Positions 15,203 through 55,888 of a DNA stretch of 64,000 nt are shown here, one piece after another. The stretch is from an uncultured virus (IMG/VR IMGVR_UViG_3300038423_000674) (lineage: Duplodnaviria; Heunggongvirae; Uroviricota; Caudoviricetes): IMG/VR virus record IMGVR_UViG_3300038423_000674; one strand, written 5' to 3'. The translations under genes were made by a program, and so were the position numbers. Each line of letters opens with the position of its first letter. Within the stretch, counting starts at the first letter, position 1. Below the pieces are notes generated by a model. That model had not been told where the DNA came from. It made no database searches and saw only the letters and a program-made list of their open reading frames with translations.

Positions 15203-15235
15203 GGATACGCCGAAACGTTCGGGGAGAATGGAACA

Positions 15236-35415: not shown

Positions 35416-37326
35416 CTAGGCCTTGATGGCGGCCTCGCCCTGGGACTGGGGAATCTCCGCCTTTTCCACCCCTTTGGGCTCGGCCTTCTGGTCGCGGTCG
35501 GTCACGAAGCCCGCCGATCCGGTGGCTTCCTTGCCGATGATTTCCTTTATTTCATTGCCGTCGTCGCCTGCGGTGCCCTCGTGTCCATCCTCCCCTTCCT
35601 TTTTCTGGTACTCGGGCTCCTCTGCGGCCCCGCCTTCCGTCCCGGCCCCCTCCTCTGGGAGGCCCTCGTCCTCTCCGGGCTCCGGCAGCTCGACCCCCAG
35701 GTTGCTCGCCAGGTTCTCCACGCCGGCCGCTATCTCGTCCAGCGAGCGGTAGAGCTCGACGATGGCACCCGCTATCTTCTCCGGGTCCTCTTCGGCGAGG
35801 CGTCGGAACTCGGCGGCGTACTTCTTCCGAGAGGCGATGCGCTCCCTCAGTGAGGCGGACCTGGGCACCGCAAGGTCCAGGTTCTCCCTCAGATAGGACA
35901 GGGAACTCCCCATGACCTGGAGGGACTGGGAAAGCTCCCCGATGGCGTCCGCCACCTTCTTCGGCTCCTTTGCCGCCACCTCCCTCATCCGGCCGTACTC
36001 GCGGGCCCTTCTTTCCTTGGCCATCTCGGCGACCTTCTCCCTGAGCGCTTCCCTCGACGATTTCTTTGCCATGTTGTCCTCCGCCGCCTTTGCGGCTCCT
36101 ACTATGGGTTTGGTATTCGCTGGCCTTGGTTTTCCGCCGCCCGTCTTCAGCGTGTCCTGGCTTATGACCCTGCCCGAGGGATAGGCGACGGCCAGCATGT
36201 TGCCAATCGGGTCTGACCGGAGGTTCACCTCCCTGGCATAGAACCCCTCCGGCGTCTCGAATACTCCCACGGTGCGGTTCAGCTTCCTCGCCTGCGTCTT
36301 GGCCTCCCAGAGCGCCTCGGTGAAGGCGGGCGAGGTGGTGCTTGTGGCCCGCTTGTTCCTTGCGGATGCCGTCCTGGTCAGGTCGCAATGGCACGGGCTG
36401 CATACGCACTGGGACTCCGGGCGGTCGCAGGCGTCGCAGTAGGCGTCCTTGGCCTTCTTGGATGCCCAGGATACGAAGTTGGTGCCGCCCTTCCCGGCCT
36501 TGGACATCAATTCTTGCAGGACCTTGTCCTTTCCGAGCTCGGGGCTGTAGCGGACGGTGGAGCTTCCCCCGGGGTTCGGATGGTTGTCGGCCAGATGCCG
36601 GTGTGCCTCCCCCTCGGAACCGAATGGCCCGTATGCCCTGGCGTTCTCCCTCCAGTCCCACGCATCCTTGGAGGAGCCATAGTCTTCGAGGACGTAATAC
36701 CATTGCCCGGGCTGCCACTCCACGAACTCGCAGTTATGGCCCGTGGATGCCTTCTTCTCCGCTCCCGTCATGTGGTATGGCCCCCCTGGTATCTCCGGCT
36801 CTATCGTGTGCCTCAGCGGCCTTTTCGGCGTGCTTCCCGGCTCGTCGTCGTCGTCGTCGGGCTGGCTCGTGACCTCGCTGAGCATGCCCCACGGGTCGGC
36901 CTTGACGTCGGCCGCTGGATCGCCCTCGGGGTACAGCGACCGCCCTGCCGGGGGCGGGGTCGCCGCCCTCTTTCCGGGCGGGGCCACGATTCCCTTCCTG
37001 ATCATCTCCAGTTCCTCCTCTGGAGTAATACCCTGATCCTCTACCTCAATGGGCCGCCCACCGGGCTCCTCGTGCGTGATCCCGTGCTCCTTCGCCCATC
37101 CCGGGGTCGTCAGCTCCTCCTGCGTGGCGACGGTCAGGCCATATTCGCGCATCGCCTCGATGACTCGGTCGGTGTATTCCGCCTTGACCAGCTCCGAGCC
37201 CCCGTTCTCGCGCCTCCATTCGTCCAGGCCGAACATGTCGGCGAGCCACTCCCGGCCCCTCCTGCTTTCCGGGGTGAAGGACGTGAACGACTCGGTGCGG
37301 GAGACCATCATGTCCAGGATCGGCAT
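35416..37326 (-). CDS. multidomain head-associated protein with K-x-A-separated modules; internal start at 36072
   Basis: Small domains separated by KRA/KKA/KAA; C-terminal helical acidic region. Confidence 0.7.
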   Translation of the reverse strand: MPILDMMVSRTESFTSFTPESRRGREWLADMFGLDEWRRENGGSELVKAEYTDRVIEAMREYGLTVATQEELTTPGWAKEHGITHEEPGGRPIEVEDQGITPEEELEMIRKGIVAPPGKRAATPPPAGRSLYPEGDPAADVKADPWGMLSEVTSQPDDDDDEPGSTPKRPLRHTIEPEIPGGPYHMTGAEKKASTGHNCEFVEWQPGQWYYVLEDYGSSKDAWDWRENARAYGPFGSEGEAHRHLADNHPNPGGSSTVRYSPELGKDKVLQELMSKAGKGGTNFVSWASKKAKDAYCDACDRPESQCVCSPCHCDLTRTASARNKRATSTTSPAFTEALWEAKTQARKLNRTVGVFETPEGFYAREVNLRSDPIGNMLAVAYPSGRVISQDTLKTGGGKPRPANTKPIVGAAKAAEDNMAKKSSREALREKVAEMAKERRAREYGRMREVAAKEPKKVADAIGELSQSLQVMGSSLSYLRENLDLAVPRSASLRERIASRKKYAAEFRRLAEEDPEKIAGAIVELYRSLDEIAAGVENLASNLGVELPEPGEDEGLPEEGAGTEGGAAEEPEYQKKEGEDGHEGTAGDDGNEIKEIIGKEATGSAGFVTDRDQKAEPKGVEKAEIPQSQGEAAIKA

Positions 37327-37327
37327 G

Positions 37328-38809
37328 CTATCTCCCCACCCCGTCGTGGCCCGGGTTGTTGGCGTGGTGGTCCCGCATGCAGAGCATGCAGAAGTTCCCC
37401 TTGCACTCGGGGCACGCCTTGAGGTCCTCGCCGCCGCCGCAGCCGCGGCACTTGGGCGGCACCCACCGCCCTTTCTGGGCGGAGGTCTTGGGTTCGGAAG
37501 GCGGGACGGGAGGAGCTTCCGCGCCCTCCTCCTTCACCTTTGCCCTCTCCGCCCGGTCCCTCCCGGATTCCTCCAGCTTTTTCTGCCGCTTCTCCTCGCC
37601 GATTTTCACCAGGGTGCGGACGAGGAGGGGAAGGACGCTCTCCTGCCCGTGAAAATGCGTCCTGACGTACGTCTCCATTACGATGGGCAGGCCGAACAGA
37701 AGCTCCTTCATGGAAGGAAGCTCAATGACCCTGCCAAGCCCGTTGATTATGCCCAGTTCCTTGGCGTTGAGGCCATTGCGGGTGGCCTCGTCCCTGTAGC
37801 GCTTCACCAGCGCCTTCTGGGCGTCGTCCAGCACTTGGCCCCGTTCCGTGACCAGCCTCGGCTTGTCGACGGCAAGGCGGTTCTTGCTGCTGTCGTCCCT
37901 GTTCTGGAGGTACGTCCATCTCCTTTCGATGTCGTCCAGCTTGGGAACCATCCCGTGCGCCTGGGTCCCCTCGTGCAGGATGCTGAGGAGGCGCATGGTC
38001 TGCCTTACGACCGGGAGGCGTTCCCTCTTGAGGAGCCATTCCCTGAACCCGTTGGCGAACCTTCCGATGGTCACGTTCTTGGAGCGTCCGGTGTAGTCCC
38101 CCATCTCCACGGCCTCCTCGGCCTGCTCGAAGTCCCGGGTGCCGGTGGCATGCTCGGAAGTCTCGATGGGAGATGGGCCGTCTTCCGGAGTGACGGTCAG
38201 GAAATTGCTCTGGGAGAGCTCATCGGAGGGCTTCCCCCTGTCCTCCAGGTACCTGACGACCCGCCTCATCTCGCTGCCCCTGCTGTTGAAGTGGCTCTTG
38301 AGGACCTGGGTGACCTGCTTGACGAGCGGGAGCTTGTCGAAGCCGGGATGCTCTGGGGAGGCGGCGAAATTTTCCAGGACGTGCTTGAACTTGGACGGAC
38401 TGAGGAACTTCCGGCTCCCCAGCACCCTGATGACGATCTCCCGGATGGCGTCGTCTATGATGTCCTCGTTGAACGTCCCCGCCTTCGACCTCAGGGTCGT
38501 ATAGATGAAGCTCGCCCAGTTCATCTTGTCGTCGACGGGCAGGCCCGCCTCGCGTATGTATGTCTTCACATATTCGTCTATGTTCCTGTCGAACCCGAGG
38601 CGGAGCATGGACGCCAGGCGGACGAACTGGGGCGGCACGGGATCGAACCCCGTGGCGTCGACCGGCCCGCCGTCCAAATCCGCGAGCTTGAAGCTCAGCC
38701 CGTCCTTCGTGGCGACGCTGGACAGGACGAGGAACACCCGGCCGTCGGTCGATCCGACGATGCGCCCGGGGACGATGAGGCGGGATTCCGCCGTCTTGCG
38801 GGAAACCAT
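37328..38809 (-). CDS. hypothetical protein with C-terminal Zn finger
   Basis: CRGCG...CPECKGNFCMLCMRDHH. Confidence 0.7.
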   Translation of the reverse strand: MVSRKTAESRLIVPGRIVGSTDGRVFLVLSSVATKDGLSFKLADLDGGPVDATGFDPVPPQFVRLASMLRLGFDRNIDEYVKTYIREAGLPVDDKMNWASFIYTTLRSKAGTFNEDIIDDAIREIVIRVLGSRKFLSPSKFKHVLENFAASPEHPGFDKLPLVKQVTQVLKSHFNSRGSEMRRVVRYLEDRGKPSDELSQSNFLTVTPEDGPSPIETSEHATGTRDFEQAEEAVEMGDYTGRSKNVTIGRFANGFREWLLKRERLPVVRQTMRLLSILHEGTQAHGMVPKLDDIERRWTYLQNRDDSSKNRLAVDKPRLVTERGQVLDDAQKALVKRYRDEATRNGLNAKELGIINGLGRVIELPSMKELLFGLPIVMETYVRTHFHGQESVLPLLVRTLVKIGEEKRQKKLEESGRDRAERAKVKEEGAEAPPVPPSEPKTSAQKGRWVPPKCRGCGGGEDLKACPECKGNFCMLCMRDHHANNPGHDGVGR

Positions 38810-38824
38810 GTGGGCCCTCGCCAG

Positions 38825-39046
38825 CTAGTCCTTGACTTTGTCGTTGGGGTCGTGGGAGCCCCCGACGTTCTTGGACTCGCTCAGGACGGCCTCCATGGTC
38901 GACAGGTAGTCGCTGTGATCCTCGAACGCCTGGGGATCCTTGGGGCCTTCCTTGTCGGTCGCCAGCTTGACCCCGACCTTGGCCAGCTCCGACCCGTAGA
39001 GGGAGTTCATCGCCTCCGCGTCGACCTTTGCTATCTTCTTGGACAT
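38825..39046 (-). CDS. small late protein
   Basis: AGGAG RBS; start MSKKIAK; late-type motif upstream. Confidence 0.65.
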   Translation of the reverse strand: MSKKIAKVDAEAMNSLYGSELAKVGVKLATDKEGPKDPQAFEDHSDYLSTMEAVLSESKNVGGSHDPNDKVKD

Positions 39047-39139
39047 TTTGCTCTCCTGTTTCGGCTGCCGGGGCCTCGCGGGCCTGCGCAGCACGGGCAG
39101 TCTTGCCCTATAAAGGGATGCCGTAGACTGGTTTCCACC

Positions 39140-41215
39140 CTATGCCACCGTCACTTGCAGGCTTTGCGTGGCCACGGCGTTCCCCGACGAGTCGTAGGCG
39201 GCGCAATTCAGGGTTATCGTGTCGTGGAAGCCGGACGCCACCTCGTAGGTCCCGGACCCCGTGGTGAAAAGGTTGCCCGTATCCAGGGTGTCGATGCCGT
39301 TCGTGCCGGATATGCGGACCTTGGCCACGTTGACGCTGGTCCAGAGGACGTACACCGGCTGGAGCGGGCTGGCCATGGAGGGGACGGCGGAGAAGCTCGC
39401 CCATGGAGGGAGGTTTACGTCGCCCTCCTCGTCGTAGGACGCCATGACCGCAAAGCCCGGCAGGTCCAGCGGGAAGAGCCCGCTCGCCGTAAGGATGAGC
39501 TGCACGAGGCCGGAACTGCTTCCGGCATGGGTGCCGTCCCCGCCATAGACGGCGGCGAAGAGGTGGCTGTCCACCGCCCAGGGGTGCGCCATGTCCATGA
39601 CGAGCGCGACGACGCCGTCGATCAGGGGGAACGGCCCGAGGTCCCCCATTATGCTGTCGGAAACGTCCACGGTGCCGGCCGGCACGCCGGACGACGACGT
39701 GACGGCAAAGGTGAGGGTGACCTCGTCCCCGAAGAACTGGGGGTTGTAGTCGCTGCTTATGGCAAGGAACGTGGGGTACAGGCTGTCCACTTCCTGCACC
39801 ACGTTTCCCGAGCTTGTGGCGAACGCGCCGTCGCCGTTGTAGGCCGCGCCCATGGTATGGATGCCGATGGACAGGGCGCTCGTGCTGTAGGTTGCGACCC
39901 CGCCCACGAGGCTGAGGGTCTGCGGCGCGATGCTGCCGAGGCTGTCGGTCAGCGTCACCGTCCCGGTGGGGGGGCCGCCGCTACCGGCGACCGTCACGGT
40001 GAGGGTGACGCTGTGCCCGTCTAGGGACGGGGTTTGGCTGGTGCCGACCGTCGTGGTCGTGGGGGTCTTGGCGAGGTATTCCGCTATCCACGCCTGATAG
40101 CCCGTCTGCGTGTTCTCCCCCCCGTGGACCGGGGCGTCCCCGAAGGTCATCGTGAAGGGGGCCTGCCCATCGGTGGCGTGGGCGATCCCGACGCTGCACA
40201 GGAAGGAGCCGGGCACGGCCCTGTCGTAGACGTACCGCAGGGGCGAGTACCCGGTCCCGGAGAGGACAATCGTAGCGCCGTCGCCCGTCAGGGCGCAGAC
40301 GATCCGGACGTCGCTGGTGCCCTGGCTCGCCCCGGAGGCGTCCGTCGAGCCGTAGCTTCCCAGCTCGTACAGCACTTGGGCCGAGGCCGCGACGACGTTC
40401 GCTATCTCCAGGATCAGGATGTGGGTGGTCTGGACCTCGGGCTCCTCCCCCGTGTTGCGGATCGAGACCGTGTAGGCGGCCCCGTCCCCCGGCTGCACGG
40501 TGCGCCTGCCGAACCAGGCCCCCGTCGGGGTGTCGGTGGTGAAGGATTTGACGTTGCTGAACGGGGGCATCGACGCCTGGAGGCCGGTGAGGGTCGTGTA
40601 GCCATAGAGCGGCAACCCGCCGCTTCCGTCGCCCGCATACCTGCCCTCGACGATGAGCAGCAGGTCGTTGCCCGGCGTGGGGGCGGAGGGCAGGTTCAGC
40701 GTGGCGGTCAGGGTGAGGATGTTCCATCCGGTCTGAATCCCGCTGCCGCTAAAGGTCTGGATTACCCCGCCGCTCAACCCGCTGCCTGGGGTGTTGCCTA
40801 CTGTTACGATGGTCTGGCCGCCCGAAAATGCCGCCGATTTCGCGACTTGGTATCCATGGTTCGGGCCGCCGTCGATGGTGAAGGCCTCGCCGCCCTGTGC
40901 ATAGGCGTTGACGGAGGCGAGATAGTCGACGCAGTCGCCCGTTATGGTGAAGGTCTTGGCCCCCACGTCGACGGCGACGATGGGATAGTTGGGGACGCTG
41001 ATCGAAAGGCTTCCCGCGGAGTAGGCCGTCACGATGCCGTCCATGTAGATGCTGGAGTCGGCGGCAAGGCTCATCCGCACCCATTGGCCGGGCACGTAGG
41101 CGACGGAGCCCGAGGTCGTAAAGGTGAAGTTGCCCGCCCCCATCACGACGCCGGACGAGGAAGTGTCGGGAACTCCGAGCCTGTAGTATGCCTGTTGTAC
41201 GATGGATGCCAGCAT
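39140..41215 (-). CDS. virion protein with Ig-like (Big_3) domains
   Basis: Two repeats of the type SVTLTVTV...PTGTVT...Y.GDG...SSS. Confidence 0.75.
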   Translation of the reverse strand: MLASIVQQAYYRLGVPDTSSSGVVMGAGNFTFTTSGSVAYVPGQWVRMSLAADSSIYMDGIVTAYSAGSLSISVPNYPIVAVDVGAKTFTITGDCVDYLASVNAYAQGGEAFTIDGGPNHGYQVAKSAAFSGGQTIVTVGNTPGSGLSGGVIQTFSGSGIQTGWNILTLTATLNLPSAPTPGNDLLLIVEGRYAGDGSGGLPLYGYTTLTGLQASMPPFSNVKSFTTDTPTGAWFGRRTVQPGDGAAYTVSIRNTGEEPEVQTTHILILEIANVVAASAQVLYELGSYGSTDASGASQGTSDVRIVCALTGDGATIVLSGTGYSPLRYVYDRAVPGSFLCSVGIAHATDGQAPFTMTFGDAPVHGGENTQTGYQAWIAEYLAKTPTTTTVGTSQTPSLDGHSVTLTVTVAGSGGPPTGTVTLTDSLGSIAPQTLSLVGGVATYSTSALSIGIHTMGAAYNGDGAFATSSGNVVQEVDSLYPTFLAISSDYNPQFFGDEVTLTFAVTSSSGVPAGTVDVSDSIMGDLGPFPLIDGVVALVMDMAHPWAVDSHLFAAVYGGDGTHAGSSSGLVQLILTASGLFPLDLPGFAVMASYDEEGDVNLPPWASFSAVPSMASPLQPVYVLWTSVNVAKVRISGTNGIDTLDTGNLFTTGSGTYEVASGFHDTITLNCAAYDSSGNAVATQSLQVTVA

Positions 41216-41222
41216 ATCCCCC

Positions 41223-41513
41223 CTACCCTATCGCCACGCCATACTGGAACGGCGGGTCCGGCATGTGGTGGATGACCTGGATTACCCCCCGGAGGTTTAT
41301 CGGCCTGTCCGTGAACAGGAGGTACCGGTTGTTTATCCTGTCGAAGAACCAGGCGGAGACGGGGACGGGGAGCCCGTCCACGTACACCTCCAGGTCCACG
41401 GACGGGTCGAACGCCTCAGGCGGGCTCGTGGGGCGGACGAGCGGGCCCACCCAGTCCCCCAGGAGGAGCTGTATGCGGTTGGGGTACGGCCCGTTGGTCT
41501 GCACGGTTATCAT
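41223..41513 (-). CDS. small virion-associated protein
   Basis: 96 aa, tightly packed in the structural operon. Confidence 0.6.
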   Translation of the reverse strand: MITVQTNGPYPNRIQLLLGDWVGPLVRPTSPPEAFDPSVDLEVYVDGLPVPVSAWFFDRINNRYLLFTDRPINLRGVIQVIHHMPDPPFQYGVAIG

Positions 41514-41517
41514 CTAC

Positions 41518-43284: not shown

Positions 43285-43296
43285 AGACTCCCTCAA

Positions 43297-43776: not shown

Positions 43777-43847
43777 TCTTGCCCCCCATAGAAGGACGGG
43801 ATAGTGCCCGACGACTGCTAATACCCGAAATTGCGGTATTTGGGGGC

Positions 43848-44414
43848 ATGAACAGCTTCATGGTCGGGACGTCCGGGGACGCCGTGGGCGGCCTGCTCGA
43901 CCTGGTCGGGGCCCCCTCCCCCGTCGTGGACGTCACCTACGGCAACGGGACATTCTGGAAGGGCAGCTCCCGCAGGGTGCTGGGAGGGGACATAAACCCC
44001 TTGCGGGCCAAGGACTTCGTGGCCGACTTCCTGCGCCTGCCGTTCGCGGACGGAAGCATACCGACGGTGGTCTTCGACCCACCGTTCCACCCGGACGTGG
44101 GGACCGCCGAGGATGCCCGTTTCAGCACGATGGGACGGAACGACGCGGAGATGAAGGAGCGCTTCATCGCCGGGACCAAAGAGTGCTGGCGCGTCACGAA
44201 GGCATTCCTGCTGGTGAAGTGCCAGGGGTTCGTCCACAACCACAAGCCGCAATGGATGCCCCTGTGGGCCATCTCGGTATGCGGGGAGCCGTTCGAGTGG
44301 CTCATAGTGGGACGGGCGCAGAAGCGCATCAGCGGACGATGGGTGTCCAACAACTCCCTGCGGAGGAACCACGCGGACTACCTGCTTTTCAGCAGGAAGG
44401 GCAACCTCAGGTAG
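43848..44414 (+). CDS. small DNA adenine methyltransferase-like protein
   Basis: VDVTYGNGTFW, ADFLRLPFADGS, VVFDPPF. Confidence 0.7.
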   Translation: MNSFMVGTSGDAVGGLLDLVGAPSPVVDVTYGNGTFWKGSSRRVLGGDINPLRAKDFVADFLRLPFADGSIPTVVFDPPFHPDVGTAEDARFSTMGRNDAEMKERFIAGTKECWRVTKAFLLVKCQGFVHNHKPQWMPLWAISVCGEPFEWLIVGRAQKRISGRWVSNNSLRRNHADYLLFSRKGNLR

Positions 44415-44547
44415 GACCGGCGAATGTCCGGATAACCGTAACGAAAAGTTACATGTCGGCCTATCAGGCCATTTATCGGGCCAAATGTCCGGATAAGTGG
44501 GGAAAAAAGGCCGAAAGGGCCTATGCGGACATGCCTGCCCATGCAGA

Positions 44548-44584
44548 CAAAGAAATGCGAGGGCCCAAGGAGGGCCCTCGCATT
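44548..44584 (-). terminator. terminator after the major capsid gene
   Basis: 13-bp stem AATGCGAGGGCCC/GGGCCCTCGCATT followed by a T-rich stretch on the - strand. Confidence 0.75.
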
Positions 44585-44606
44585 GAGGCTTGCCAAGCGG
44601 CTAGTT

Positions 44607-45608
44607 CTAGTTCTCGCCGACGTTCTGGTTGGCGACGAACGCTTCGTACCTGCCGTTGATGGTCAGGCGCTGGACGCCTGACGGGTTGAAGACCAGGAAG
44701 CCGAGGTTCTCGAAGATCGAGAAGCCGATCTGGCGCAGGTCGGGACGGTCGGCGGACATGACGGTCAGCGGGATGCGCTCCGGGATGACGCCCAGGAACT
44801 CGGCGTCCGCCAGGATGTACACGCAGCCGTAACCGACCTTACGGGACTGGAGGAGCGTGGCCCCCCACAGATAGCCCATCACTCCTGTTTTGAGCAGTTT
44901 GCGCTGGGTTTCCCTGTCAATATTCTGCTGGGTCCATTTGAGCAGGTCGACGTAGTCCCTCGGGTTGAAGAAGCAGAACGCGACCGAGAGGTCGTGCCGT
45001 TGCACCTGCCCGAAGCCGTCCGCCATCGAGTTGAGGTCGATGGGGGCGTTGATGGCGATGTCGCCGTTGTAGATGGGGTCGAACGTGCCGCTTCCACTCC
45101 TCGCTTGGTTGTCCGCGGCCACTGCCGTGTTCGCGGAGGCTGCTACGGCGTCGAACAAGCCGAACACGTAGCCGTCCTCGGCGGCCCCAACCTCGGCCTT
45201 CGCCAGGTTAAGGGCACGGGCGACCAAATCGAACCGACGCTCCTTGATCTGGGAGATCGGGATCATCGGGTTGGAAACGATTTCGAAAGTGGGCACCGTG
45301 ACCCTCTTGGGCTTGGTGACCCTGACGATATCCCCGCCCTCCTCGCCCACGACGAAGGCTTCGACGAAGGACCCACCGGGGGTGGAGCCCACGGTCTGGG
45401 CCGCGGTGTCGAATTCCTTGTCGTAGATGGGCAGAGCGCCGTCCGGCAGCGTTTCGACCATGAGCGCCTTGCGTGCGATGCTCATGTAGTCACGCCGCCT
45501 GCGGAGAGACGGTCCGAGCGAGGCGGCCAGCTTCTGGCGGCCTCCTGCGGTCTTCAGCAACTGACCGATCATAGCGGTCTGCTGCTGTGTGCGGCTGAGG
45601 TTTGCCAT
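44607..45608 (-). CDS. major capsid protein (HK97 fold likely)
   Basis: 333 aa; follows protease, scaffold and decoration genes; followed by a terminator; DYMSIARKALMVE.LPDGALPIYDK, AEDGYVF. Confidence 0.8.
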   Translation of the reverse strand: MANLSRTQQQTAMIGQLLKTAGGRQKLAASLGPSLRRRRDYMSIARKALMVETLPDGALPIYDKEFDTAAQTVGSTPGGSFVEAFVVGEEGGDIVRVTKPKRVTVPTFEIVSNPMIPISQIKERRFDLVARALNLAKAEVGAAEDGYVFGLFDAVAASANTAVAADNQARSGSGTFDPIYNGDIAINAPIDLNSMADGFGQVQRHDLSVAFCFFNPRDYVDLLKWTQQNIDRETQRKLLKTGVMGYLWGATLLQSRKVGYGCVYILADAEFLGVIPERIPLTVMSADRPDLRQIGFSIFENLGFLVFNPSGVQRLTINGRYEAFVANQNVGEN

Positions 45609-46495: not shown

Positions 46496-48679
46496 CTATC
46501 CTTCGAAATCGTCGGCGAACAGGGCCGCGGCCACGTTGATGCGCGGCGGCTCCTTGTCGGAGGCGATGACCGGCTTGATTCTCTTCAGGGTCGGGGGCGC
46601 TGCCGGTGCGGCGGCCTTCTTCTCCCCCTCCTTGGCGGAAGCCTCCTTCGGGGGCTTCAGTTCGTTGGTCGCGTCCTGCGGGGTCCGCTTGGCCCCCTGC
46701 TCCTCGGGCTTCCCATCCGGTATCACCTCGGCCCAGAGGTCGTCCTCGTGGTCGCTGGAGGTATTGCGGGTCTCCTTGGGGGCCTCGTTCTGTTCGAAGT
46801 GCTTTGCCGCCTCCCCAGTGTAGCTGGGAACGACGCTGATCCCCGCCACTTCGGCGGCGGACTTGACCGTCATCAGGGCGGCCAATGGGTCGTCGTCCGA
46901 TCCCTGCCTGTTGAACATGTCGCTGATGGTGCCCATGCCGTCGCCGTCCTCCAGCGAGGCCTCCATCTCGGCGGCCGCGGACGGGGCGAAGAAGTCCGTC
47001 CCCCCGGGATCGCCTTCGTTGGCCAGGGCGGCGGCCTTCTCTCCCATCTCCTCGTCGTTGAAGATTTCCTCCAGCTTGAGCTCCTGGCCCTCGCCTTCGG
47101 GCAGTCCGGCCTCAAGCTCGTCGCCCTCGTTCTCGACGACGCCCTTGGGGACCTCCTCGCCTTCTTTTTCTTCCTTCTCGACGGCTTCCTCAAGCTGGTG
47201 GATTTCGTCCGCCAGCTCGTCGGCCTTCTCCCCGAGGTCCTTGATCTTCTCCTCCGTCACCATCTCGGCGGCGGGGGCTTCCGGCCCGGGCCCGGGAAGG
47301 CCTGCGTCGCCGGCCGGCGGCGCTTCGACCGGTGGGGCGGCCTCGGTTGGCGGGGCGGTACCTGCTGGCGGGGCGGCATCCTCCCCGTGGAGCCCTGCAT
47401 CGGGGTCGTCCGCCTTCTTGGCGTTGGCTTCCTTGGAGCACTTCGGGCACGGCTTGCCAGGCTTGCACTCGGCACATGCCGCCGCCTTCTTCCCGGAGGC
47501 GGACTTGCCTTCCGACAGGTCCACGGTGTCGCCGGGACGTTCCCCGGCCCCGGGGCGCTCCCCGGCCTTGGAGGCGTCGAGCTCCTTCGGCTCGCTGTGC
47601 GTCCCTCCCCCGCATCCGCGACCGTCGTTGTAGGTCGGCGTCTGGGGTCCGGCGTCCTTGCGGTCGTCGGCCGTCTTCTCGGCGGGGGCGGCGTTCTTCG
47701 CCTCGCCCCGGACCTCAGCCTTGACGGCGCTCTTTTCCTTCGCGAGGACTTCGGGCTTCTCAAGTAGGTCGTTCATCTCGACCTTGTGGACCTCCTTGAG
47801 CGTTTCCGCCACCTTGGTGTAGTGGGCGTTGATCGCCGTCTGGCGCAGGGCCGCCTTGAGCGCGCAGGTCTTGTTCTGGAGCAGCGACGCCGCGAACGTT
47901 TGCTGCGTTTCGGGCGGGGCCCCCGGCAGCATCGTCTTGGCGATGGTCCAGGCGCAGGCGACGCGGGTCTTGGCCTCCCGGGTGATCGCCTCCCTGCTGA
48001 CCTTCATCTCGGCGAGCTTTTCCTTCAGCGAAGACTTCTTTTCATTTGCCATGGCTCTTCCTCTCTGCTTCGTCCCCTTTTCGGGCGGACAATTTCCCTT
48101 CTTATCTTGAGTTTGGTAGTTGCTTTCCTTGCTGGCCTGCACCGGCTCCCCCGCTAGGGAGGCGGACGGTGCCCCTGCCGGGGCGGGCGGGGGCGCTTCA
48201 GACGGGGGCGCGGCCCCCGCCGATGGTTCGCTTGGCGATGCCCCTTCCGGGGGGGTTTCGGGAGGGACTCCCTCCCCCTCGGCCGGGGGCGCTTCCGGCA
48301 CGTCTGGCTTGGCTCCCGCAGGCGCGGGCGGCGTTTCGGGGACCAGGTTCCCGCCAGCCTCCACCAGGTCCGTGCCCTTGCCGGTGGCGATGTTCCCTAT
48401 CTCCTCGTCCAGTCCGTCCAGCTCGGACTTCAGCTCGTCCGACCAGTTCTGGCTCTCCTTGAACCTCTCCCACGCGGTGAGGAGGTCCACCTTCTCTTTC
48501 ATGGCCCGGATTTCCTGCTCGATCTCCCCCCGCTTCTCGGCGAGGTAGTCGAACGTCTTCTCCCCCTCCCCCTCGGGGAGGGACATGTCCAGGCTCTTGA
48601 TTTCGTTGTCCAGCTCGCCGAGCTCGGCGAGCTTGCGCCTGTAGGTTGCAATGATCGTATCGGCCTTTGGCTTTGCCAT
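46496..48679 (-). CDS. scaffold-like protein; internal start at 48052
   Basis: Acidic coiled-coil and Pro/Ala-rich; lies between protease and capsid genes; ends AAALFADDFEG. Confidence 0.7.
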   Translation of the reverse strand: MAKPKADTIIATYRRKLAELGELDNEIKSLDMSLPEGEGEKTFDYLAEKRGEIEQEIRAMKEKVDLLTAWERFKESQNWSDELKSELDGLDEEIGNIATGKGTDLVEAGGNLVPETPPAPAGAKPDVPEAPPAEGEGVPPETPPEGASPSEPSAGAAPPSEAPPPAPAGAPSASLAGEPVQASKESNYQTQDKKGNCPPEKGTKQRGRAMANEKKSSLKEKLAEMKVSREAITREAKTRVACAWTIAKTMLPGAPPETQQTFAASLLQNKTCALKAALRQTAINAHYTKVAETLKEVHKVEMNDLLEKPEVLAKEKSAVKAEVRGEAKNAAPAEKTADDRKDAGPQTPTYNDGRGCGGGTHSEPKELDASKAGERPGAGERPGDTVDLSEGKSASGKKAAACAECKPGKPCPKCSKEANAKKADDPDAGLHGEDAAPPAGTAPPTEAAPPVEAPPAGDAGLPGPGPEAPAAEMVTEEKIKDLGEKADELADEIHQLEEAVEKEEKEGEEVPKGVVENEGDELEAGLPEGEGQELKLEEIFNDEEMGEKAAALANEGDPGGTDFFAPSAAAEMEASLEDGDGMGTISDMFNRQGSDDDPLAALMTVKSAAEVAGISVVPSYTGEAAKHFEQNEAPKETRNTSSDHEDDLWAEVIPDGKPEEQGAKRTPQDATNELKPPKEASAKEGEKKAAAPAAPPTLKRIKPVIASDKEPPRINVAAALFADDFEG

Positions 48680-49581
48680 TACCTTAGGTTCCTTCCGTCG
48701 TCACTTGAGAGCAACAGCTCCCCCAAATAAGGACTTGAATAGTCGCCACTTTCCGAGGCCGCCTTGGAGAACGCCTCTTTTCCCGAGGCCTCGACCCTGC
48801 TCGTGAAGCGGGTGGCGGGGCCCAGCCACTCGTCCGCCACTATGGACCTCTGCATCGCCCCCGGGAACGCCGGGGTCTGCACCCAGCTGGCCTCCACGAA
48901 CTTCACCCCCCCTCCGGGGAGGGTCCTGTGCCCGCAGAGCTCCGCCACGCGGCGCGGCACCCCGTCGTCGTCCGGCAGGAACGTGCCCTTGTTGAACTGG
49001 AGGTGGTGGCAGTAGCTGCTCGCGTCCGTGACGTGCTGCCCGCAGAAGGAGCATATGACGAGGTCGGTGACGCACCCCATCGACAGGTACTTGACCTTCC
49101 TGCTCCTTATGTCGTCGGCAAGCTTGTGGTGCGAGAGGTCCGTCGCCACGAGGATGTCGACGAAGAAAACGTCGTCCCGGGGGTCCTGGGTGAGGTGTAT
49201 CTTGCGGAGGATGCTGTCGATGACGTGCCCCTTCGCATACTTGCTGTTCTGGAAGTGCTCGACGAAGTTGAATGCCCCCACGAAGCTCTTGTGGGACAGC
49301 TTGAGGACGGAATTCTCCCATGCATCGTCGTTGTTGTTAACGAGATGCGCCGACGCGGGGCGGATCAGGTAGTCGTTGGGCTCGGACTCGCAGGCCACCG
49401 AGCTCATAATGGTGCAATGGCTGAGCAGGTACTTGGTGTGGTCGGCCGCGGTCTTGCAGAAGGGATGCGCCCTGTCGACGGCGCACCCGCGGAAGGCGCG
49501 ATCCCCCCACATCCTCCCCCAGTCGCAGGAAGTCATCGTAGGCTCGAAAAGCACGGCCTGGGCTATCTTCTTGAACGACAT
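48679..49581 (-). CDS. prohead protease with Zn-finger insert
   Basis: NNNDDAW, NFVEH, YLSMGC, CSFCG..CHHL, FVEASWVQTPAFPGA. Confidence 0.75.
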   Translation of the reverse strand: MSFKKIAQAVLFEPTMTSCDWGRMWGDRAFRGCAVDRAHPFCKTAADHTKYLLSHCTIMSSVACESEPNDYLIRPASAHLVNNNDDAWENSVLKLSHKSFVGAFNFVEHFQNSKYAKGHVIDSILRKIHLTQDPRDDVFFVDILVATDLSHHKLADDIRSRKVKYLSMGCVTDLVICSFCGQHVTDASSYCHHLQFNKGTFLPDDDGVPRRVAELCGHRTLPGGGVKFVEASWVQTPAFPGAMQRSIVADEWLGPATRFTSRVEASGKEAFSKAASESGDYSSPYLGELLLSSDDGRNLR

Positions 49582-49618
49582 GGTTCCCTAATATAAGCTT
49601 GCGTAGCCGCCGTGATCC

Positions 49619-52600
49619 CTACTTGGCGAAGAATGCCCCGCAAGTCAGGCATTCCACTAGGTTTCCGCCCTCCACCTCCGGGTCGTCGACGGGCTTGGTC
49701 TTCTGGCCATGGCAGTTCGGGCACACCTCGTTGACCCCTTCCTCGGTCTGGACGGCGACCTTGCTTTTCTTTCGGTACTCGGGCCTCCAGCGGTAGCTGT
49801 CCAGGAGTTCCTCGGCTTGTTCCGGATTGAGCTTGTCCTCGAACTCGACCCCCTGAATCTCGATTTCCACGGTTTGCAGCCCTGGGTTGTTGCGCAAGGC
49901 CTCCTTGACCACTTCCCGAACTCTCGGGGAGTCTACTTGGATGTCGAAGGCGACGAAAGGCGGAGTGCAAATGACCCGGACCGCCGATTCGAAGCCTTCT
50001 TCAAGGTGGCTTTTGTCCACTGCTACGGGAACGAAGTCGCCTTCCGGGGTAAGCCACCCATTCTGATCGATGATGATGGGCCCGCAGCGCTTGGTCGGCC
50101 CCCCTCCCGCCTGCTTGGAGACCATATTGTCCCCGATGAACTTCCTCACGGACTGCGGCAGCCCGTCCAGGTCGCCCTTCTTGTCCATCTCCGCCACGAT
50201 GGTATGGTAGGCCCACGTGTTCCTGGGCCTTGCCTTGAGCGCCAGCCCCAGCTCGGCGAGCGCCTCCTCCTCGTTCCCCTCATGGGCGAGGGCCACCCCG
50301 AGCCTGAAGTGGGCGGGCCCGTGGTAGGGGTTGGAGCGGACGGAGGAGCGCAGCGCCTCCGTCGCATCGTTCTGCCTGCCCTCGTCCCACAGCCTGCATG
50401 CCTCGTCGTACTGCTTCTTCGCCCCGATGGGATCCCAGTCGGAGGCCTTCTTGGCCCCCCGTATCCTCATCTCCTGGAGGAACCTCCTGTCCTCGTCGGT
50501 GAGGTCCAGGTACGACGCCGGGTCGGCATGGGGATGGAAGGTCCGCATGTGGTCTTTCATATACAGCTTGCTTATTATCGCCCCGCATCCCGGCTCCTGG
50601 CACCGGTCGTGGGTGCCCCTCTCCACGAGGTCATTAAGCTCCCCACCCCCGGACGGCCCCGAGGCCTTCCCACAACTCTGGGCATGCCGCCGAATCTCAT
50701 CGTCCGTCCAATCCGTCTGGTTCTGCCAGCAAACGGGGCAATGCACCTGCGGTCCGGAAGGAGCCGGGAAATCCGTCTTTTCTATCGGCCTCCCGTACAG
50801 GGTGCCGAGGTCGGGTATCGGCCCCCTGTCGTCCTCGTCGTCCTCGTCGTCCTCCTCGGCGCTGCCCGCCCCCTTGCTCACCGGGATGGGAATCCTGTCC
50901 TCCTCGTCCACGAGCGACGGGTCGAGGTGCTTCCTGAGCTCGGTGCGGGGCGGCAGCAGGTCGGGTGACTCGTGGATTTCCACCTTCGACTCTAGGGCCG
51001 ACATCTTCTCCTGGAGCTGCCTGACTATCTCGCTGACCATGCTGTCCTGGTCGGCGACGTTCTGCGGAACGCCAGGCGGGGCATTGGGATCGACCGACAG
51101 GGACTGGCCTCGTTGGTAGGGCCGCCCCTGCCGCCCTTGCTGCTGCGTTTGCTGCTGTTCCTGCTGCACGGGCCCGGCTGGGTGCTGGGCACTCTGTTGG
51201 GCTGGCTGCTGGGCGGGCTGCTGGAACGAAGCGGGGTGGGTGGGCTGGTCGCCGGGCGCGGGCTGCCCCACGCCGTTCGCCGTCCCGCCGATGGGAGTGC
51301 CAGCGCCGTAGGACTTCGTGGTGGCCTGCTTGGGCTTTGGGGTGCCCACCATTGCCACCAGTTTAGATCCTTCTTGTAGGGGAACCGACTTGCTGCCTAC
51401 GGACCACCCAGCATTTTGCGACCGAATGTTCCTTGCCCCCTCGGGCGAAAAGAATATGTAGGCCGTCCCCAAGATGCCGGATGCCATCTTGGCAGCCTCC
51501 TCAATGACGTCGTCCGGGATGTCGTTCCACTCGCCGACGAACACCTTTCCTATGGCCTCGGCGGCCTGTCTACTATCCCATTCCGCCTTTTTGAGGAGGG
51601 CCGAGACGAACGGGCGCAAGCGCCTGCTCCTGGAGGGATGGCGCAGCTTGCGCAGGGCCTTTGCCTCGATCTGGCGTATCCGCTCCCTGTTAACCGCAAA
51701 CTCATTCCCTATTTCCTCAGGGGTGGCCCCGCCCCTTCCGTCCAGGTTGAACCGCCTTTCGATGACTTTCTGCTCGCGAGGGGTCAGCGTGCCCAGGACT
51801 CCTCTTATCGCCTCCCTGAGCTCCTCCCTGTCGAAGGCGACGCCGATGTCCTCGTCCAGGGGAACGATACCCCAATCCTCCGTTTCCTGGAAAGAAATGG
51901 TATCTACCTTTTCTTTCTTCCCCCCGCCCCATTTCGTCAGCCTTTCCCGTTCGGCATCGGTCAGGGAGGGGTCCCCGAAATGCTTCCCCGTCGACTTCTC
52001 CCATTCCAGGATCGCCCTGGTTATGGGGTAGTCCTTCATCCGCTTGCCGGGCAGGCGCTCGACCGGAATCCAGCGAGGGTCCATGCCCTTGCTTTTTATG
52101 TAGGCAACCAGGTCCGGGTCGGCGCTGGGCGGGGCGTCCCCGCCCCGTTCGGTGCCCTCCTCGCTCTCCTTGAAGAACGTGGCGGTCTCGGGGTCCGGCT
52201 CCTTGAGGAGCGGGCTGACGGGCGTCACCCTCTTGGTAAACTCCTCGACGGGCTCATGGGCGAAATCCCTGGCGTCCTCGGCAGCCATGCGGTCGAGGGC
52301 CAGCGCCGTCCTGCGGATGCTCCCCTTCCGTATCCTGCCGAAATGGGCAAGGACCTCGGCCGCCCTGTAGGACGGCTCCGAGGGCCGGGAGGCCGCCTTC
52401 GCCTTGAATCCCTTGCATTCGCAGCCGCGTCCTTCGCTCTTGCAGCCGAAGTCCCCCTTGTCCCAGTGCTCGTGCCACATGTGCCCGCAGACGCAGACGG
52501 AGGAGTCGGCGTGCTTGGCGGATCCGTGCTTGGTGCCCTCCACCTCCGTCCCCTTCTGGCCGAACGGCATGTCGTACTCCGGGTCGGCATGGTGCTGGTG

Positions 52601-52726
52601 AGCGGCGTACCCCGGGTCGTCTATGAGGTTTTCCTTGGTGACGAGGTCGATGCCCCCCACCCCTTCCCCGATTCCGGGAACTGGGAGCAAAGCGGACTTC
52701 TTGAGCAAGAGAGAGCTGGAAGCCAT
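49619..52726 (-). CDS. 1035-aa modular polyprotein (Zn fingers, RpoD-like sigma region 4, Gln-rich linker, TPR, Zn ribbon)
   Basis: [13 protein letters not shown]...[44 protein letters not shown]; several CxxC motifs. Confidence 0.75.
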
Positions 52727-52799
52727 ATTCGCCTTTCACATAAAGCATCGGATAGACACGGATTTCTGACGAAAAACCGGTATTGCATCCGATGAGCCC

Positions 52800-53168
52800 A
52801 TGAGCACACGGGACCTGACCAAGAAAAGCGCCATGCGGGCCGTCCAGGAAGCCCTGTCGGACGACCTGATGAGCCCGGAATGGCTGGAGAAAAGGAAGCC
52901 GGGCGACCACTTCACCTTCGGGCACTGCTATCTTGCCGCCGAAACCCTGTTCCACATATGGGGAAGGCAAAGGGGATACGTCCTGGTGGTCCTGAGCGGC
53001 CCGGGATGGACCCACTGGTTCCTGGCCAGGGACGACGGAAGTATAGCCGACCCCACGGCGGGGCAGTGGAAGGACGAGCGCATTCCCTACGAGAAGGGGA
53101 GGAGGACGGGGTTCCTCACCAAGCATCCGTCGAAGAGATACAAGATGCTCATGACCTCGACACAATAA
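52800..53168 (+). CDS. small papain/transglutaminase-like protein
   Basis: Putative Cys-His-Asp triad GHCYLAAE, THWFL, ADPTAGQ. Confidence 0.55.
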   Translation: MSTRDLTKKSAMRAVQEALSDDLMSPEWLEKRKPGDHFTFGHCYLAAETLFHIWGRQRGYVLVVLSGPGWTHWFLARDDGSIADPTAGQWKDERIPYEKGRRTGFLTKHPSKRYKMLMTSTQ

Positions 53169-53261
53169 GCTAAAAATGGTACAACAGAATAGGCTAAGAA
53201 TGGAACGACACAACAGGATGCGGGCCATGTGCCCGTCCCGTCCTTGACTAAAGGCCCGTCT

Positions 53262-53954
53262 CTACGAAATCGAGTACAGCAGGCTGCGCCCGGTGGCGTC
53301 GCCAGCGTTCATGCCGCTGTCCAGGAACTCGCCGTAGACCGTGCCGGACACGTCGAAGATGTCCGTCACCGACACGGTGACGTTCTCGTTCACGGCGGCG
53401 GTCTCGATGGCGTACCCCGTCGTATAGTTGCTGATCCAGCAACCCTCGTACACTGTGGCCACGGCGAACAGGCCCGGGTTGCCGAGGTTGTTGAGGCCGC
53501 CCTCGTTCGGGATGTCGGCCTTGGTAAGGTCGGGGGTCCCCCCGCCCGTCCCGGCCGCGTTGGCGGGATCCTCGGAGGCGAGCTGGCTGAACACGATCTC
53601 GGTCTTGATGTCGAAGGGCCACCTGTGGTGGCGGATGGAGCGTACGCCGCCGCTCACGCCCGCCTTGTAGCCCAGCACCTGCATGATGTTGGCCAGGTAG
53701 AGGCACGTGCGCTGGATGGTGATGCTCAGCGGCTCGGTGACGCCGGGCACCAGCTCGGCGATCTGATCGCCGTAGCCTAGCCCGCGGATGGCCTCGACCG
53801 TGCGCGTCTCGGAAATCTGGAAGGAGGACGTCACGCCCAGCTTCACGAACTTCCCGACGCCCACGACGTCGGTGAAAATCTTGAAGCGGGAGCTGATGAC
53901 GGCTTCCGTCTGGGGGCTCGCCCCCTGCTGATAGATGTAACCACCCTGCGCCAT
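53262..53954 (-). CDS. tail tube protein
   Basis: ETRTVEAIRGLG..IAELVPG, PFDIK, YEGCWIS; lies downstream of the sheath gene. Confidence 0.8.
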   Translation of the reverse strand: MAQGGYIYQQGASPQTEAVISSRFKIFTDVVGVGKFVKLGVTSSFQISETRTVEAIRGLGYGDQIAELVPGVTEPLSITIQRTCLYLANIMQVLGYKAGVSGGVRSIRHHRWPFDIKTEIVFSQLASEDPANAAGTGGGTPDLTKADIPNEGGLNNLGNPGLFAVATVYEGCWISNYTTGYAIETAAVNENVTVSVTDIFDVSGTVYGEFLDSGMNAGDATGRSLLYSIS

Positions 53955-54037
53955 TGTCTTCCTCCTGAAAGCCGACCTATACGGGCGGCATCCTACTCAA
54001 ATCCCTGAAAGTCCCTTTCCTTGCAATCGCCGCTACG

Positions 54038-55888
54038 TTACTCCGCCGCCGCGAGCGACAGGTCGTCGAGCAGCGACCCTTTCTTCTTCTTCCCCTTCTC
54101 CTTCTGCTTGACGGCGTCCTCTTCGGCCTGCTCCTGCATCTGCTGCTTGCCCAGGACCTTGGCGGCCTGCCCGAGCAGGTCGTACGCCCGGTAGATGGCC
54201 TCGACCGCCTCCCGGACGGGCCGGGAGTCGTTGGCTTCGGTCACTTCCTTGGCGTCGAGGTACATTTCCTTGAGCCGCTCGGCCAGCTTCTCCACCTGCT
54301 TGAGCGCCTTGGAGGCGCTGACCTCGTCGGCGGCGACGACGTTCTTGCCCGTCGCCGAGATGTTCCCCCCCTGTGCCTCGGGGCTGGTGAACAGGACGCT
54401 CCCGCAATCGGCGCAGCGGGTCAGTCCTTTGGACGTCTTCGTGTGAGCATCCTTGTGGCATTTCGTGCAGTACATCGTGTCCGCCGCGAACTTGGAGGGC
54501 AGCTCCGTGGCGGGGCGGTCCAGCTTCGCCGGGCCCTCGTCCTCCAGCCCGTGCGCCTCGGCGATCTCGGGCGTCCTGCCGCCGTCCTCCTTGACCTTCA
54601 GGGTGTCCTCGTTGTGGACGAACCAGGAACCGCCCTGGCCGGTGGCGAGCTTGAGGTAATGGTCGGCAAGCTCCTTGCGCATCGCCGCCTGGGCCTCCTT
54701 GAAGCTGCTCCCCTTGAACTTGTCCCCCTTGTTCTTCATGTACCATGCAAGCGCGAACGGGTTGTCGATGTCGGGGTCCTTCTTCATCTCCTTCACGGCG
54801 TGCTCCGCCCCCGGGGGGGCCACGGCGACCTTCCCGGTCGCCTCCTTCTCTGCCGATGCCATGTTGAGGCCTCCGAATACCTTCCTGTCCACCCCATCAT
54901 CCCCAAGGGGGTCGTCCCCGCGCTCCTCCGAGAGTATGTCCTCGTCCCGCGAGACTTGGCCCGGCACGCCGTGCTCCTCGGCCATCTCCTCCGCCGTCCG
55001 CCTGGCGGCCTCAAGGATTCCCTCGAAGGGCACCGCCGTGGGGTCGTTGGACGGCAGAGAGGCCATGGAATCCTGCGGGTGGTTCCCGGCGTTGTACTCG
55101 TCGACTATCTCTCCCCCCGCCATGATGAACACCGTGTAGCCGTTCGGAGAGGCGTCGTATACGACGTGCGTGACCTTCTTGCCCGGGACCGCGCCGATCG
55201 CGGCGGCCTTCGGGGCGGGCTCGGGGGCGGCCTCCACGGGGCGTCCCTTGAGCTCCTTGGCGGCCTGCTCGACGAGCGCCAGGGCGGCCTTGTCGTTGAG
55301 TTCCACGTCGGCCAGGGCCTTGACTACCTTGCTGAGCGCATCGCTGGACATCTGGTGGACGTCCACCGATCCGTCGGGCCCGGCTGCTGGCACTGGAGGA
55401 GGAGGGGGAGGCGGCGTCGCTGCAGGGGCTGCGCCCGGTGCTGCGGGCTGCGCAGTCTTTTTCGTCGCCAAGCGAGGGACTTCCGCCTTCTCCGGGGCCT
55501 TGGCTTTGTCTTCCTTGTCCCTGTCGGTGACCCACGGGTCGCTGCCGGAGGACGCCGCCACGGCCTGCGGGGCCTTGGGCGGCATTTCCGTCTGCTTCAC
55601 GGTGGTGCGGAACTGCCCGGCAAGCTGGCCGATCCAGTTCACGTATTTCTTGGCGGTCTGGGCATACCGGGGGCTTGCGGCGTCGTCCAGGGACCTTTCC
55701 GCGTCCGTGCCCAGTGCAAGGATGTCGGAAAGCCATGCGGTGGCGGCATGGAGCTGCTCCAAACGGGCGTCGTTGGTCGACTGGAGGATGGGCTCCAGCT
55801 TGTAGGCTTCCTGGACGGCCTGCCTGAGCGTGTCGAGGCTGACCAGCAGCTTTGCCTTCTTGCGACGGGCTATCAGGTTGGATTTCAT
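54038..55888 (-). CDS. multidomain head-associated protein with K-x-A-separated modules
   Basis: KTA, KAA, KEA, KVA, KLA and KFA linkers; DNPFALAW module; Zn ribbon CTKC..CADC. Confidence 0.7.
   Translation of the reverse strand: MKSNLIARRKKAKLLVSLDTLRQAVQEAYKLEPILQSTNDARLEQLHAATAWLSDILALGTDAERSLDDAASPRYAQTAKKYVNWIGQLAGQFRTTVKQTEMPPKAPQAVAASSGSDPWVTDRDKEDKAKAPEKAEVPRLATKKTAQPAAPGAAPAATPPPPPPPVPAAGPDGSVDVHQMSSDALSKVVKALADVELNDKAALALVEQAAKELKGRPVEAAPEPAPKAAAIGAVPGKKVTHVVYDASPNGYTVFIMAGGEIVDEYNAGNHPQDSMASLPSNDPTAVPFEGILEAARRTAEEMAEEHGVPGQVSRDEDILSEERGDDPLGDDGVDRKVFGGLNMASAEKEATGKVAVAPPGAEHAVKEMKKDPDIDNPFALAWYMKNKGDKFKGSSFKEAQAAMRKELADHYLKLATGQGGSWFVHNEDTLKVKEDGGRTPEIAEAHGLEDEGPAKLDRPATELPSKFAADTMYCTKCHKDAHTKTSKGLTRCADCGSVLFTSPEAQGGNISATGKNVVAADEVSASKALKQVEKLAERLKEMYLDAKEVTEANDSRPVREAVEAIYRAYDLLGQAAKVLGKQQMQEQAEEDAVKQKEKGKKKKGSLLDDLSLAAAE

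Follow-up and report, generated by a model that had tools for sequence, protein, structure and literature searches.

In phage T4, the prohead protease gp21 acts on the scaffold gp22 as well as on the internal proteins IPI-III and Alt at a Leu/Ile-x-Glu signal, and gp175 of phiKZ and gp245 of SPN3US cut after Glu. To our knowledge, cleavage rules have been worked out for few prohead proteases, i.e. those of T4, the phiKZ group, HK97 and the herpesviruses. The polyvalent proteins of phages and conjugative elements, reportedly described by Iyer and colleagues in 2017, are large multi-domain chains that are thought to be delivered together with the DNA and then processed. Cleavage by gp245 in SPN3US removes N-terminal propeptides (PMC10052503); a report on the pseudorabies virus assemblin gives YLQA-T and VQA-S as cleavage sites, and cleavage at the latter removes a C-terminal capsid-binding tail (PMC4498786). 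Here, we analysed a 64-kb stretch of DNA with 63% G+C, which is part of the genome of an uncultured jumbo phage (IMG/VR record IMGVR_UViG_3300038423_000674; referred to as the window), and in which the minus strand at ~35.4-60 kb holds the structural genes. We propose, with a probability of roughly 0.62, that the motif Lys-x-Ala (K-x-A, with R-x-A tolerated in places) is the cleavage signal of the prohead protease encoded there and that large mosaic proteins encoded nearby are cassette polyproteins. The genes in question are:

35416..37326, minus strand: second mosaic protein, 636 amino acids (aa), 12 K-x-A, with variable cassettes between conserved N-terminal and C-terminal helical parts
44607..45608, minus strand: major capsid protein (MCP; PHROG 2522, E 1.9e-41)
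46496..48679, minus strand: scaffold-like protein, 727 aa, 18 K-x-A; its start overlaps the protease stop
48679..49581, minus strand: prohead (capsid maturation) protease, 300 aa (PHROG 18299 'head maturation protease', E 6.6e-15)
49619..52726, minus strand: mosaic protein, 1035 aa, candidate cassette polyprotein, 11 K-x-A, directly upstream of the protease
54038..55888, minus strand: protein of 616 aa, 11 K-x-A; the counterpart in phage Tunturi_5 is annotated 'DNA ejection protein'

The original prediction, made from the letters of the window alone, had listed K-x-A sites in these proteins and had named enrichment over chance as a point to be tested. All of the listed sites were found in the open reading frames named, and one of them, 'RRTA', is R-x-A rather than K-x-A. 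Expected numbers were set from each protein's own composition by 2000 shuffles, and a second null shuffled residues inside 30-residue blocks; as controls, we used the window's other 43 genes and the tail genes of relatives. The counts in the window were:

35416-37326: 12 K-x-A against 4.4 expected, z 4.0, block-shuffle p 0.004
Protease 48679-49581: 6 against 1.4 expected, z 4.05, block-shuffle p 0.001
Scaffold 46496-48679: 18 against 10.3 expected, z 2.7, block-shuffle p 0.011
49619-52726: 11 against 5.4 expected, z 2.6, block-shuffle p 0.009
54038-55888: 11 against 9.2 expected, not significant, block-shuffle p 0.46

Enrichment was thus observed in four of the five proteins, but not in 54038-55888. 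Pooled, the five proteins contain 58 K-x-A against 30.9 expected (Poisson p 8e-6), the four without 54038-55888 contain 47 against 21.6, i.e. about 2-fold (p 1.5e-6), and the other 43 genes were not enriched (52 against 46.5, p 0.23). Moreover, no residue pair at spacing 0, 1 or 2 in the five window proteins deviated more strongly than K-x-A (z 4.89); when whole proteins were shuffled 1000 times, 0.6% of the shuffles reached a maximum z this high, as did 6.1% of the 30-residue block shuffles. From these shuffles, we conclude that the signal in the window alone is real but modest. K-x-A was also present within the first 32 residues in 8/17 genes in 35416-55888 versus 4/31 elsewhere in the window. 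The N-terminal sites that had been pointed out in the genes starting at 37328 and 38825 are present, but they are single occurrences. The first of these genes (37328-38809, minus strand, 493 aa) has K-T-A at residues 5-7, the related loci contain no homolog of it, and the cluster in its Cys/His-rich C-terminus looks like a zinc finger.

The closest cultured relative of the window phage is Tunturiibacter phage Tunturi_5 (309 kb; MCP 69% and protease 60% identical); more remote relatives are the uncultured 485-kb phage LR745208 and Bacillus phage G (MCP 34% identical). Scanning IMG/VR with the protease gave 80 loci with conserved gene order, of which 3 belong to the window's own phage, and this phage was left out of the counts in relatives; the proteases form 38 clusters at 92% identity. 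Across the 81 loci (Tunturi_5 and the 80 from IMG/VR), the gene order protease, scaffold, 185-aa protein, MCP was kept where the contig reaches, and the same order is found in the annotation of Tunturi_5. The K-x-A counts in the relatives were:

Protease family: 209 against 72 expected
Scaffold family: 605 against 325 expected
49619-like family: 127 against 73 expected
54038-like family: 236 against 187 expected
Sheath family (window tail sheath at 56397-59945, by PHROG scan): 46 against 42 expected
148-aa protein family: 5 against 8 expected
230-aa protein family: 0 against 16 expected
41518-like family: 39 against 46 expected

The reversed pattern A-x-K speaks against a mere abundance of Lys and Ala, its ratio of seen to expected being ~1.0-1.2 in the protease, scaffold and mosaic families. 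R-x-A was mildly enriched in the relatives (ratio 1.15-1.59), and it stands in for K-x-A at one junction in two relatives. Around the sites in scaffolds and mosaic proteins, Gly and Pro were depleted at P2, and Ser, Thr or Arg were favoured at P4; at P1', Pro was depleted in the scaffolds and Lys/Arg in the mosaic proteins, and Ser and Ala were favoured. In total, the relatives make the K-x-A signal convincing, and in them it is enriched only in head-assembly and mosaic proteins. Together with the conserved sites at the ends of the protease and past its domain described below, this restriction gives strong comparative support to the earlier suggestion that the protease may cut at K-x-A. The 230-aa family, the window copy of which (53262-53954, minus strand) is flanked by the 54038-like gene on one side and the variable region on the other, has zero K-x-A in 31 homologs; this could reflect selection against the motif in a protease-exposed protein.

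In the protease, K-x-A motifs end at residues 7, 45, 116, 155, 270 and 275. K-x-A was found at aligned position 7 in 37/38 clusters, at position 45, which immediately precedes the conserved beginning of the catalytic domain, in 30/37, and at position 275, ~25 residues before the basic C-terminus, in 33/38. In the AlphaFold model (mean predicted local distance difference test (pLDDT) score 60), the core 45-262 is folded and the stretches 1-16, 28-46 and 265-300 are under pLDDT 50, and sites 7, 45 and 275 fall in stretches under this value. Similarly, scaffold reference positions 18, 337 and 423 are K-x-A in 28/28 aligned homologs, with a flank identity of only 0.25 at position 423, and most of the 37 listed scaffold homologs have, as judged by eye, K-x-A at a distance of ~25-50 residues from the C-terminus, with a conserved tail after it. 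The N-terminal arm of the MCP has K-T-A (aa 19-21) and K-L-A (aa 26-28), both in 31/31 clusters; these sites, which had been listed as further instances of the motif, do exist, but they are uninformative either way because the entire arm, i.e. the first 40 residues, is invariant. The MCP of phage G has zero K-x-A.

The same pattern was observed in the wider protease family, in which a profile search of 1.84 billion cluster representatives identified 1575 members at E up to 0.001. For the positional tests, we used the best 150 of these 1575 representatives (P0017-P0166), which are mutually at most 50% identical. Within the first 12 residues, 86/150 have K-x-A and 113/150 have [KR]-x-A, with chance values of 0.10 and 0.17, respectively. 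Most of them (107/150) are 351-700 aa long and consist of the protease and a C-terminal, often acidic, extension. K-x-A-[ST] occurs 20-90 residues past the domain end in 58 of the 130 representatives that carry the domain-end motif, while shuffled segments give 8.6 (maximum 15 in 200 shuffles), and in 40 of the 130 the motif past the domain end is exactly K-A-A-S. The layout of protease and extension, which is also found in L002- and L018-type loci, resembles the herpesvirus protease-scaffold fusion. In phage G, the protease gp19 has 8 K-x-A against 2.4 expected (p<0.001) and has kept the pattern of own sites; its neighbours gp20 and gp21 each have a K-x-A near the N-terminus.

The identity of the protease is supported by a structural scan in which the core 43-262 of the model was compared with 48,161 chains. 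T4 gp21 ranked first (5jbl, Z 6.9, root mean square deviation 3.9, 128 residues aligned), followed by the proteases of varicella-zoster virus (VZV; Z 5.7) and human cytomegalovirus (HCMV; Z 4.6), and the protease of Kaposi's sarcoma-associated herpesvirus ranked 19; the best unrelated chain had Z 4.4. His109 and Ser167 are invariant in 26/26 aligned proteases and align with a His and a Ser of phage G gp19, suggesting that they could be the active-site residues. Among the relatives' proteases, 1/26 matches Pfam family Peptidase_S78_2 (E 0.056); the window protease does not reach the curated cut-off of the Pfam prohead protease families (Peptidase_S78, S77/U9, S21 and U35), and PHROG 18299 is the only family that it matches. 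In total, the modelled protease most closely resembles the T4 gp21/assemblin fold class, and proteolytic activity is predicted. After Ser167, aa 177-193 contain an invariant cluster of Cys177, Cys180, Cys191 and His193, which looks like a zinc-binding insertion; we are not familiar with such an insertion from other prohead proteases.

In the mosaic protein 49619-52726, K-x-A motifs lie beside three recognisable modules:

51584..51838, minus strand: sigma-70 region 4 module, aa 297-381 (Pfam Sigma70_r4, E 1.6e-15, aa 310-363)
50108..50443, minus strand: TPR module, aa 762-873 (Pfam TPR_16/TPR_19; pLDDT 83-97)
49622..49753, minus strand: C-terminal Zn-ribbon module, aa 992-1035, preceded by S-K-V-A (pLDDT 75-92)

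The sigma module (aa 300-374) matches positions 555-629 of the 631 positions of the NCBIfam RpoD profile (E 4.6e-28), and this match stops ~7 residues before K-K-A (aa 379-381). The module also matches MzaA, the sigma factor of an anti-phage system. The edges of the TPR module are K-K-A (759-761) and K-Q-A (871-873), and the downstream K-x-A is kept in 6/6 homolog clusters though the sequence beyond it differs. Directly upstream of the Zn ribbon, Ser-Lys-x-Ala is present in 13/16 clusters in which the match reaches the module start, and the sequence farther upstream is unrelated between these clusters. In the AlphaFold model (mean pLDDT 50), the TPR, the Zn ribbon and one Zn finger are confident and the sigma region 4 is weakly so. 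It had been suggested that the motif marks domain boundaries; the K-x-A ends at 761 and 873 do flank the modelled TPR (760-871) on both sides, and that at 991 is just before the Zn ribbon (998-1035), but 66% of the protein is modelled at low confidence, and therefore it is not significant that 10/11 sites are found in stretches of this kind or at boundaries.

Relatives match 49619-52726 in patches, and 20/53 ends of these homology blocks are at most 6 residues away from a K-x-A versus 7.5 expected. When the protein was split at its K-x-A sites and each piece was searched separately, the junction K-x-A was matched in relatives at 29/53 module starts and 15/26 module ends (background 6.8%). For 54038-55888, it was kept at 36/88 module starts and 41/52 module ends. 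With respect to the earlier question whether homologs swap modules exactly at K-x-A, junctions of 49619-52726 are kept above background, but some sites of the window are unconserved. Among relatives, the gene upstream of the protease encodes ~110 to 2567 aa, and in Tunturi_5 it encodes an unrelated protein of 170 aa. The N-terminal K-x-A is conserved in the 54038 family (~19/28, by eye) and in several 49619-like proteins, and 54038-55888 possibly belongs to the mosaic set.

A search for related loci with the second mosaic protein, 35416-37326, found only the window's own phage, and its homologs came from a protein search. These homologs (P0002-P0011) have differing combinations of at least three cassettes at one K-x-A-bounded place, which follows a conserved stretch ending in K-x-A. 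One of these cassettes is particularly informative:

36451..36747, minus strand: cassette A, aa 194-292, between K-K-A (191-193) and K-K-A/K-D-A (290-295)

Cassette A is missing in P0004, P0005 and P0007, in which the next cassette directly follows K-x-A, and five free-standing proteins of 90-117 aa are homologous to it (P0012-P0016, E 5.5e-24 to 1.3e-11). The free-standing homologs start with Met-Ser-Thr/Gln, in which Met aligns to the junction Ala and the second residue to the first residue after K-K-A. Since the free homologs start right after the junction Ala, a cut after Ala would give the N-terminus that the free protein has after removal of Met; the alignment thus favours cleavage after Ala. 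The varied combinations at one place and the free-standing homologs of cassette A give strong comparative support to the proposal of the original prediction that cassettes are inserted in frame between K-x-A sites. Its expectation that modules would have standalone homologs was borne out by cassette A but not by aa 874-991 of 49619-52726, for which no free-standing homolog was found; the only other occurrence of this module was within a 1385-aa protein of locus L028.

Finally, two of these proteins share a second short motif:

55451..55534, minus strand: W-V-T-D-R-D ... P-E-K-A-E-V-P, then K-T-A, in 54038-55888
35446..35508, minus strand: F-V-T-D-R-D ... E-K-A-E-I-P, preceded by K-E-A, at the C-terminus of 35416-37326

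The pattern [W/F]-V-T-D-R-D ... P/V-E-K-A-E-[V/I]-P has exactly two occurrences in the six frames of the window. The V-T-D-R-D motif is conserved in homologs and repeated in some, with a K-x-A before each copy, and it may be a docking or targeting signal.

From these observations, we infer the following mechanism. The procapsid would take in the protease, the scaffold and the mosaic proteins. The protease would cut after the Ala of K-x-A, trimming its own N-terminal leader and removing its own C-terminal tail of ~25 residues, and it would cut the scaffold at many sites, one of which separates the conserved C-terminal tail. Moreover, 49619-52726 and 35416-37326, and probably 54038-55888, would be cut at their junctions, freeing small folded modules, i.e. 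Zn fingers, sigma-70 region 4, TPR and the cassette A protein, which could then be ejected from the head. New modules would join as whole small genes, in frame between two sites. A wider scenario, which we regard as tentative and, taken as a whole, doubtful, is a plug-in cargo system in a large clade of soil jumbo phages including G and Tunturi_5: whole small genes would be captured in frame between K-x-A sites of head-internal polyproteins, carried into the capsid by shared docking motifs, released by the assemblin-like protease and injected as a host-takeover cocktail that includes a free sigma-70 region 4 as a possible decoy for host RNA polymerase; in this scenario, the cut after Ala shared with herpesviruses would be an old lineage trait and not a coincidence.

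Several observations weigh against K-x-A as the cleavage signal of cassette polyproteins. Among the sites, 54038-55888 has no K-x-A enrichment in the window; the K-x-A upstream of the TPR module is kept in 0/6 homolog clusters, and that before 537-616 of 54038-55888 in 0/26; site 943 of 49619-52726 is inside a predicted helix; and the conserved protease K-x-A at 116 lies within the catalytic domain. The family-wise p by block shuffles for the window alone is only 0.061, and the homolog counts are non-independent because relatives inherit sites, and therefore the positional evidence weighs more. With respect to the protease, the fold match to gp21 is moderate (Z 6.9) and confidence in the AlphaFold models is low (mean pLDDT 60 for the protease and 50 for 49619-52726); Foldseek of the model against the PDB gave no match at E up to 0.001, the alignment profile against PDB sequences gave only a chance hit (E 0.64), and the window protease matched no Pfam family at E up to 10 and no protease family in NCBIfam. 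An Erwinia Alexandravirus relative with 32% identity in the protease core is without K-x-A enrichment; thus, the K-x-A rule does not cover every match of the protease family. Finally, the literature searched gave no cleavage, virion proteomics or expression data for the window phage or its relatives, and no printed K-x-A or after-Ala rule for a phage protease was found in it; virion mass spectrometry of phage G may bear on this.

An alternative that we consider unlikely, and that accepts cleavage at K-x-A, is that the fragments are disposable assembly material, i.e. scaffold or filler that leaves the head, and not cargo delivered to the host. Prohead proteases are known to degrade scaffolds, as in T4 and HK97, and the density of sites is indeed highest in the scaffold, 66% of 49619-52726 is predicted to be disordered and the modules have no known effector activity. 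However, folded modules with plausible host targets have been kept, i.e. sigma-70 region 4 (E 4.6e-28), TPR and Zn fingers, and the capture of free-standing genes as a whole argues against disposable filler; moreover, the label 'ejection protein' given to the counterpart of 54038-55888 in Tunturi_5 speaks against filler, although this is an annotation only.

It is improbable that K-x-A is a conserved motif with a role other than cleavage, such as scaffold or capsid docking, DNA binding by Lys/Ala-rich tails, or lysine modification. The cassette A homologs that start exactly past the Ala argue against such a role, as does the lack of A-x-K enrichment, and isolated K-x-A motifs occur where the surroundings are not rich in Lys/Ala, at junctions whose flanks are unrelated. 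In addition, the sites flank the protease domain as the self-processing sites of herpesviruses do. What speaks for a non-cleavage role is that some sites are within Lys/Ala/Pro-rich runs near the scaffold C-terminus and that the V-T-D-R-D ... E-K-A-E-V-P motif documents that these proteins do use short linear motifs.

We regard it as very improbable that the enrichment is a functionless by-product of composition, helix propensity or shared ancestry. The motif is short, high GC makes Ala common, inheritance inflates the homolog counts and the family-wise p of 0.061 in the window could be read in this way; however, the expectations were set for each protein from its own composition, the tail proteins of the same genomes have no excess, the 230-aa family has 0 versus 16, and K-x-A is kept at a flank identity of 0.25 and where flanks are unrelated, as well as recurring among representatives at most 50% mutually identical. 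Use of a T4-like Leu/Ile-x-Glu signal by the protease, with K-x-A being incidental, is hardly credible: T4 gp21 is the closest fold and, of the spaced pairs in the five window proteins, only K-x-A is more enriched than L-x-E (42 versus 21.2), but we rejected L-x-E as the real signal because it is unenriched in relatives outside the scaffold (protease 45 versus 47, 49619-like 80 versus 76 and 54038-like 77 versus 89, i.e. ratios of 0.95, 1.05 and 0.87), being enriched only in the helical scaffold (248 versus 189), and it is absent at the junctions inspected.

Other genes of the window are listed for orientation:

7336-16000, plus strand, left third of the window: clustered genes for nucleotide-sugar epimerases, methyltransferases and a glycosyltransferase
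20002-21774, minus strand: collagen-like tail fibre
23626-25641, minus strand: weak match to terminase large subunit
43779-44414, plus strand, inside the head module: DNA methyltransferase (PHROG 24333, E 3.8e-19)
52800-53168, plus strand, inside the head module: member of PHROG 12251, to which PHROG assigns no function

Beside the terminase, the gene at 23077-23592 has 5 K-x-A against 1.7 expected (p 0.017); it encodes an apparent membrane-anchored coiled-coil protein, and we took this count as chance.

If K-x-A is the cleavage signal, the Lys-x-Ala rule would make head-internal and injected proteins predictable with nothing but their sequence across a large group of giant soil phages, most of which are uncultured, and it would account for the gain and swap of small injected factors; moreover, phage and herpesvirus proteases would be linked by specificity as well as by fold. 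The rule is directly testable because Tunturi_5 and phage G are in culture.

Compared with T4, the window protease is similarly a head-maturation serine protease of the same fold class as gp21 that is encoded beside scaffold and capsid genes, and in both systems a three-residue signal recurs in scaffold, protease and internal proteins; short N-terminal leaders are removed in T4, and would be removed here in the proposed mechanism. By contrast, the signal here is Lys-x-Ala and not Leu/Ile-x-Glu, and the substrates include proteins of 600-2500 aa with several swappable modules, while those of T4 are single small internal proteins. With phiKZ and SPN3US, the likeness is that these are also jumbo phages with many head proteins that carry repeated protease motifs, and theirs are trimmed before ejection; in these phages, several copies of the motif are possible within one propeptide and the propeptides removed are N-terminal, whereas the motif here is found between folded modules along the whole chain.

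The herpesvirus assemblins are of the same fold class (VZV Z 5.7, HCMV Z 4.6) and share Ala at P1 followed by Ser/Thr as well as one site that closely follows the protease domain and another that is tens of residues away from the scaffold C-terminus, cleavage at these sites being predicted here. However, the marked residue here is the Lys at P3, the window protease and scaffold are separate genes with overlapping stop and start, and no sequence similarity was detectable with the protease profile against PDB sequences. We know of no multi-module substrates in herpesviruses. As in polyvalent proteins, unrelated and independently occurring domains (sigma-70 region 4, TPR, Zn and cassette A) are found in one large protein; polyvalent proteins, however, usually have their own peptidase and anti-defence enzyme domains, whereas here the modules are small and of a binding type, and processing would fall to a separate capsid-maturation protease. 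Embedded peptidase or anti-defence enzyme domains were not found in the three mosaic proteins in Pfam, PHROG and NCBIfam scans. Altogether, what is new in the candidate system is its specificity and the architecture of its substrates; the system itself is of a known kind.

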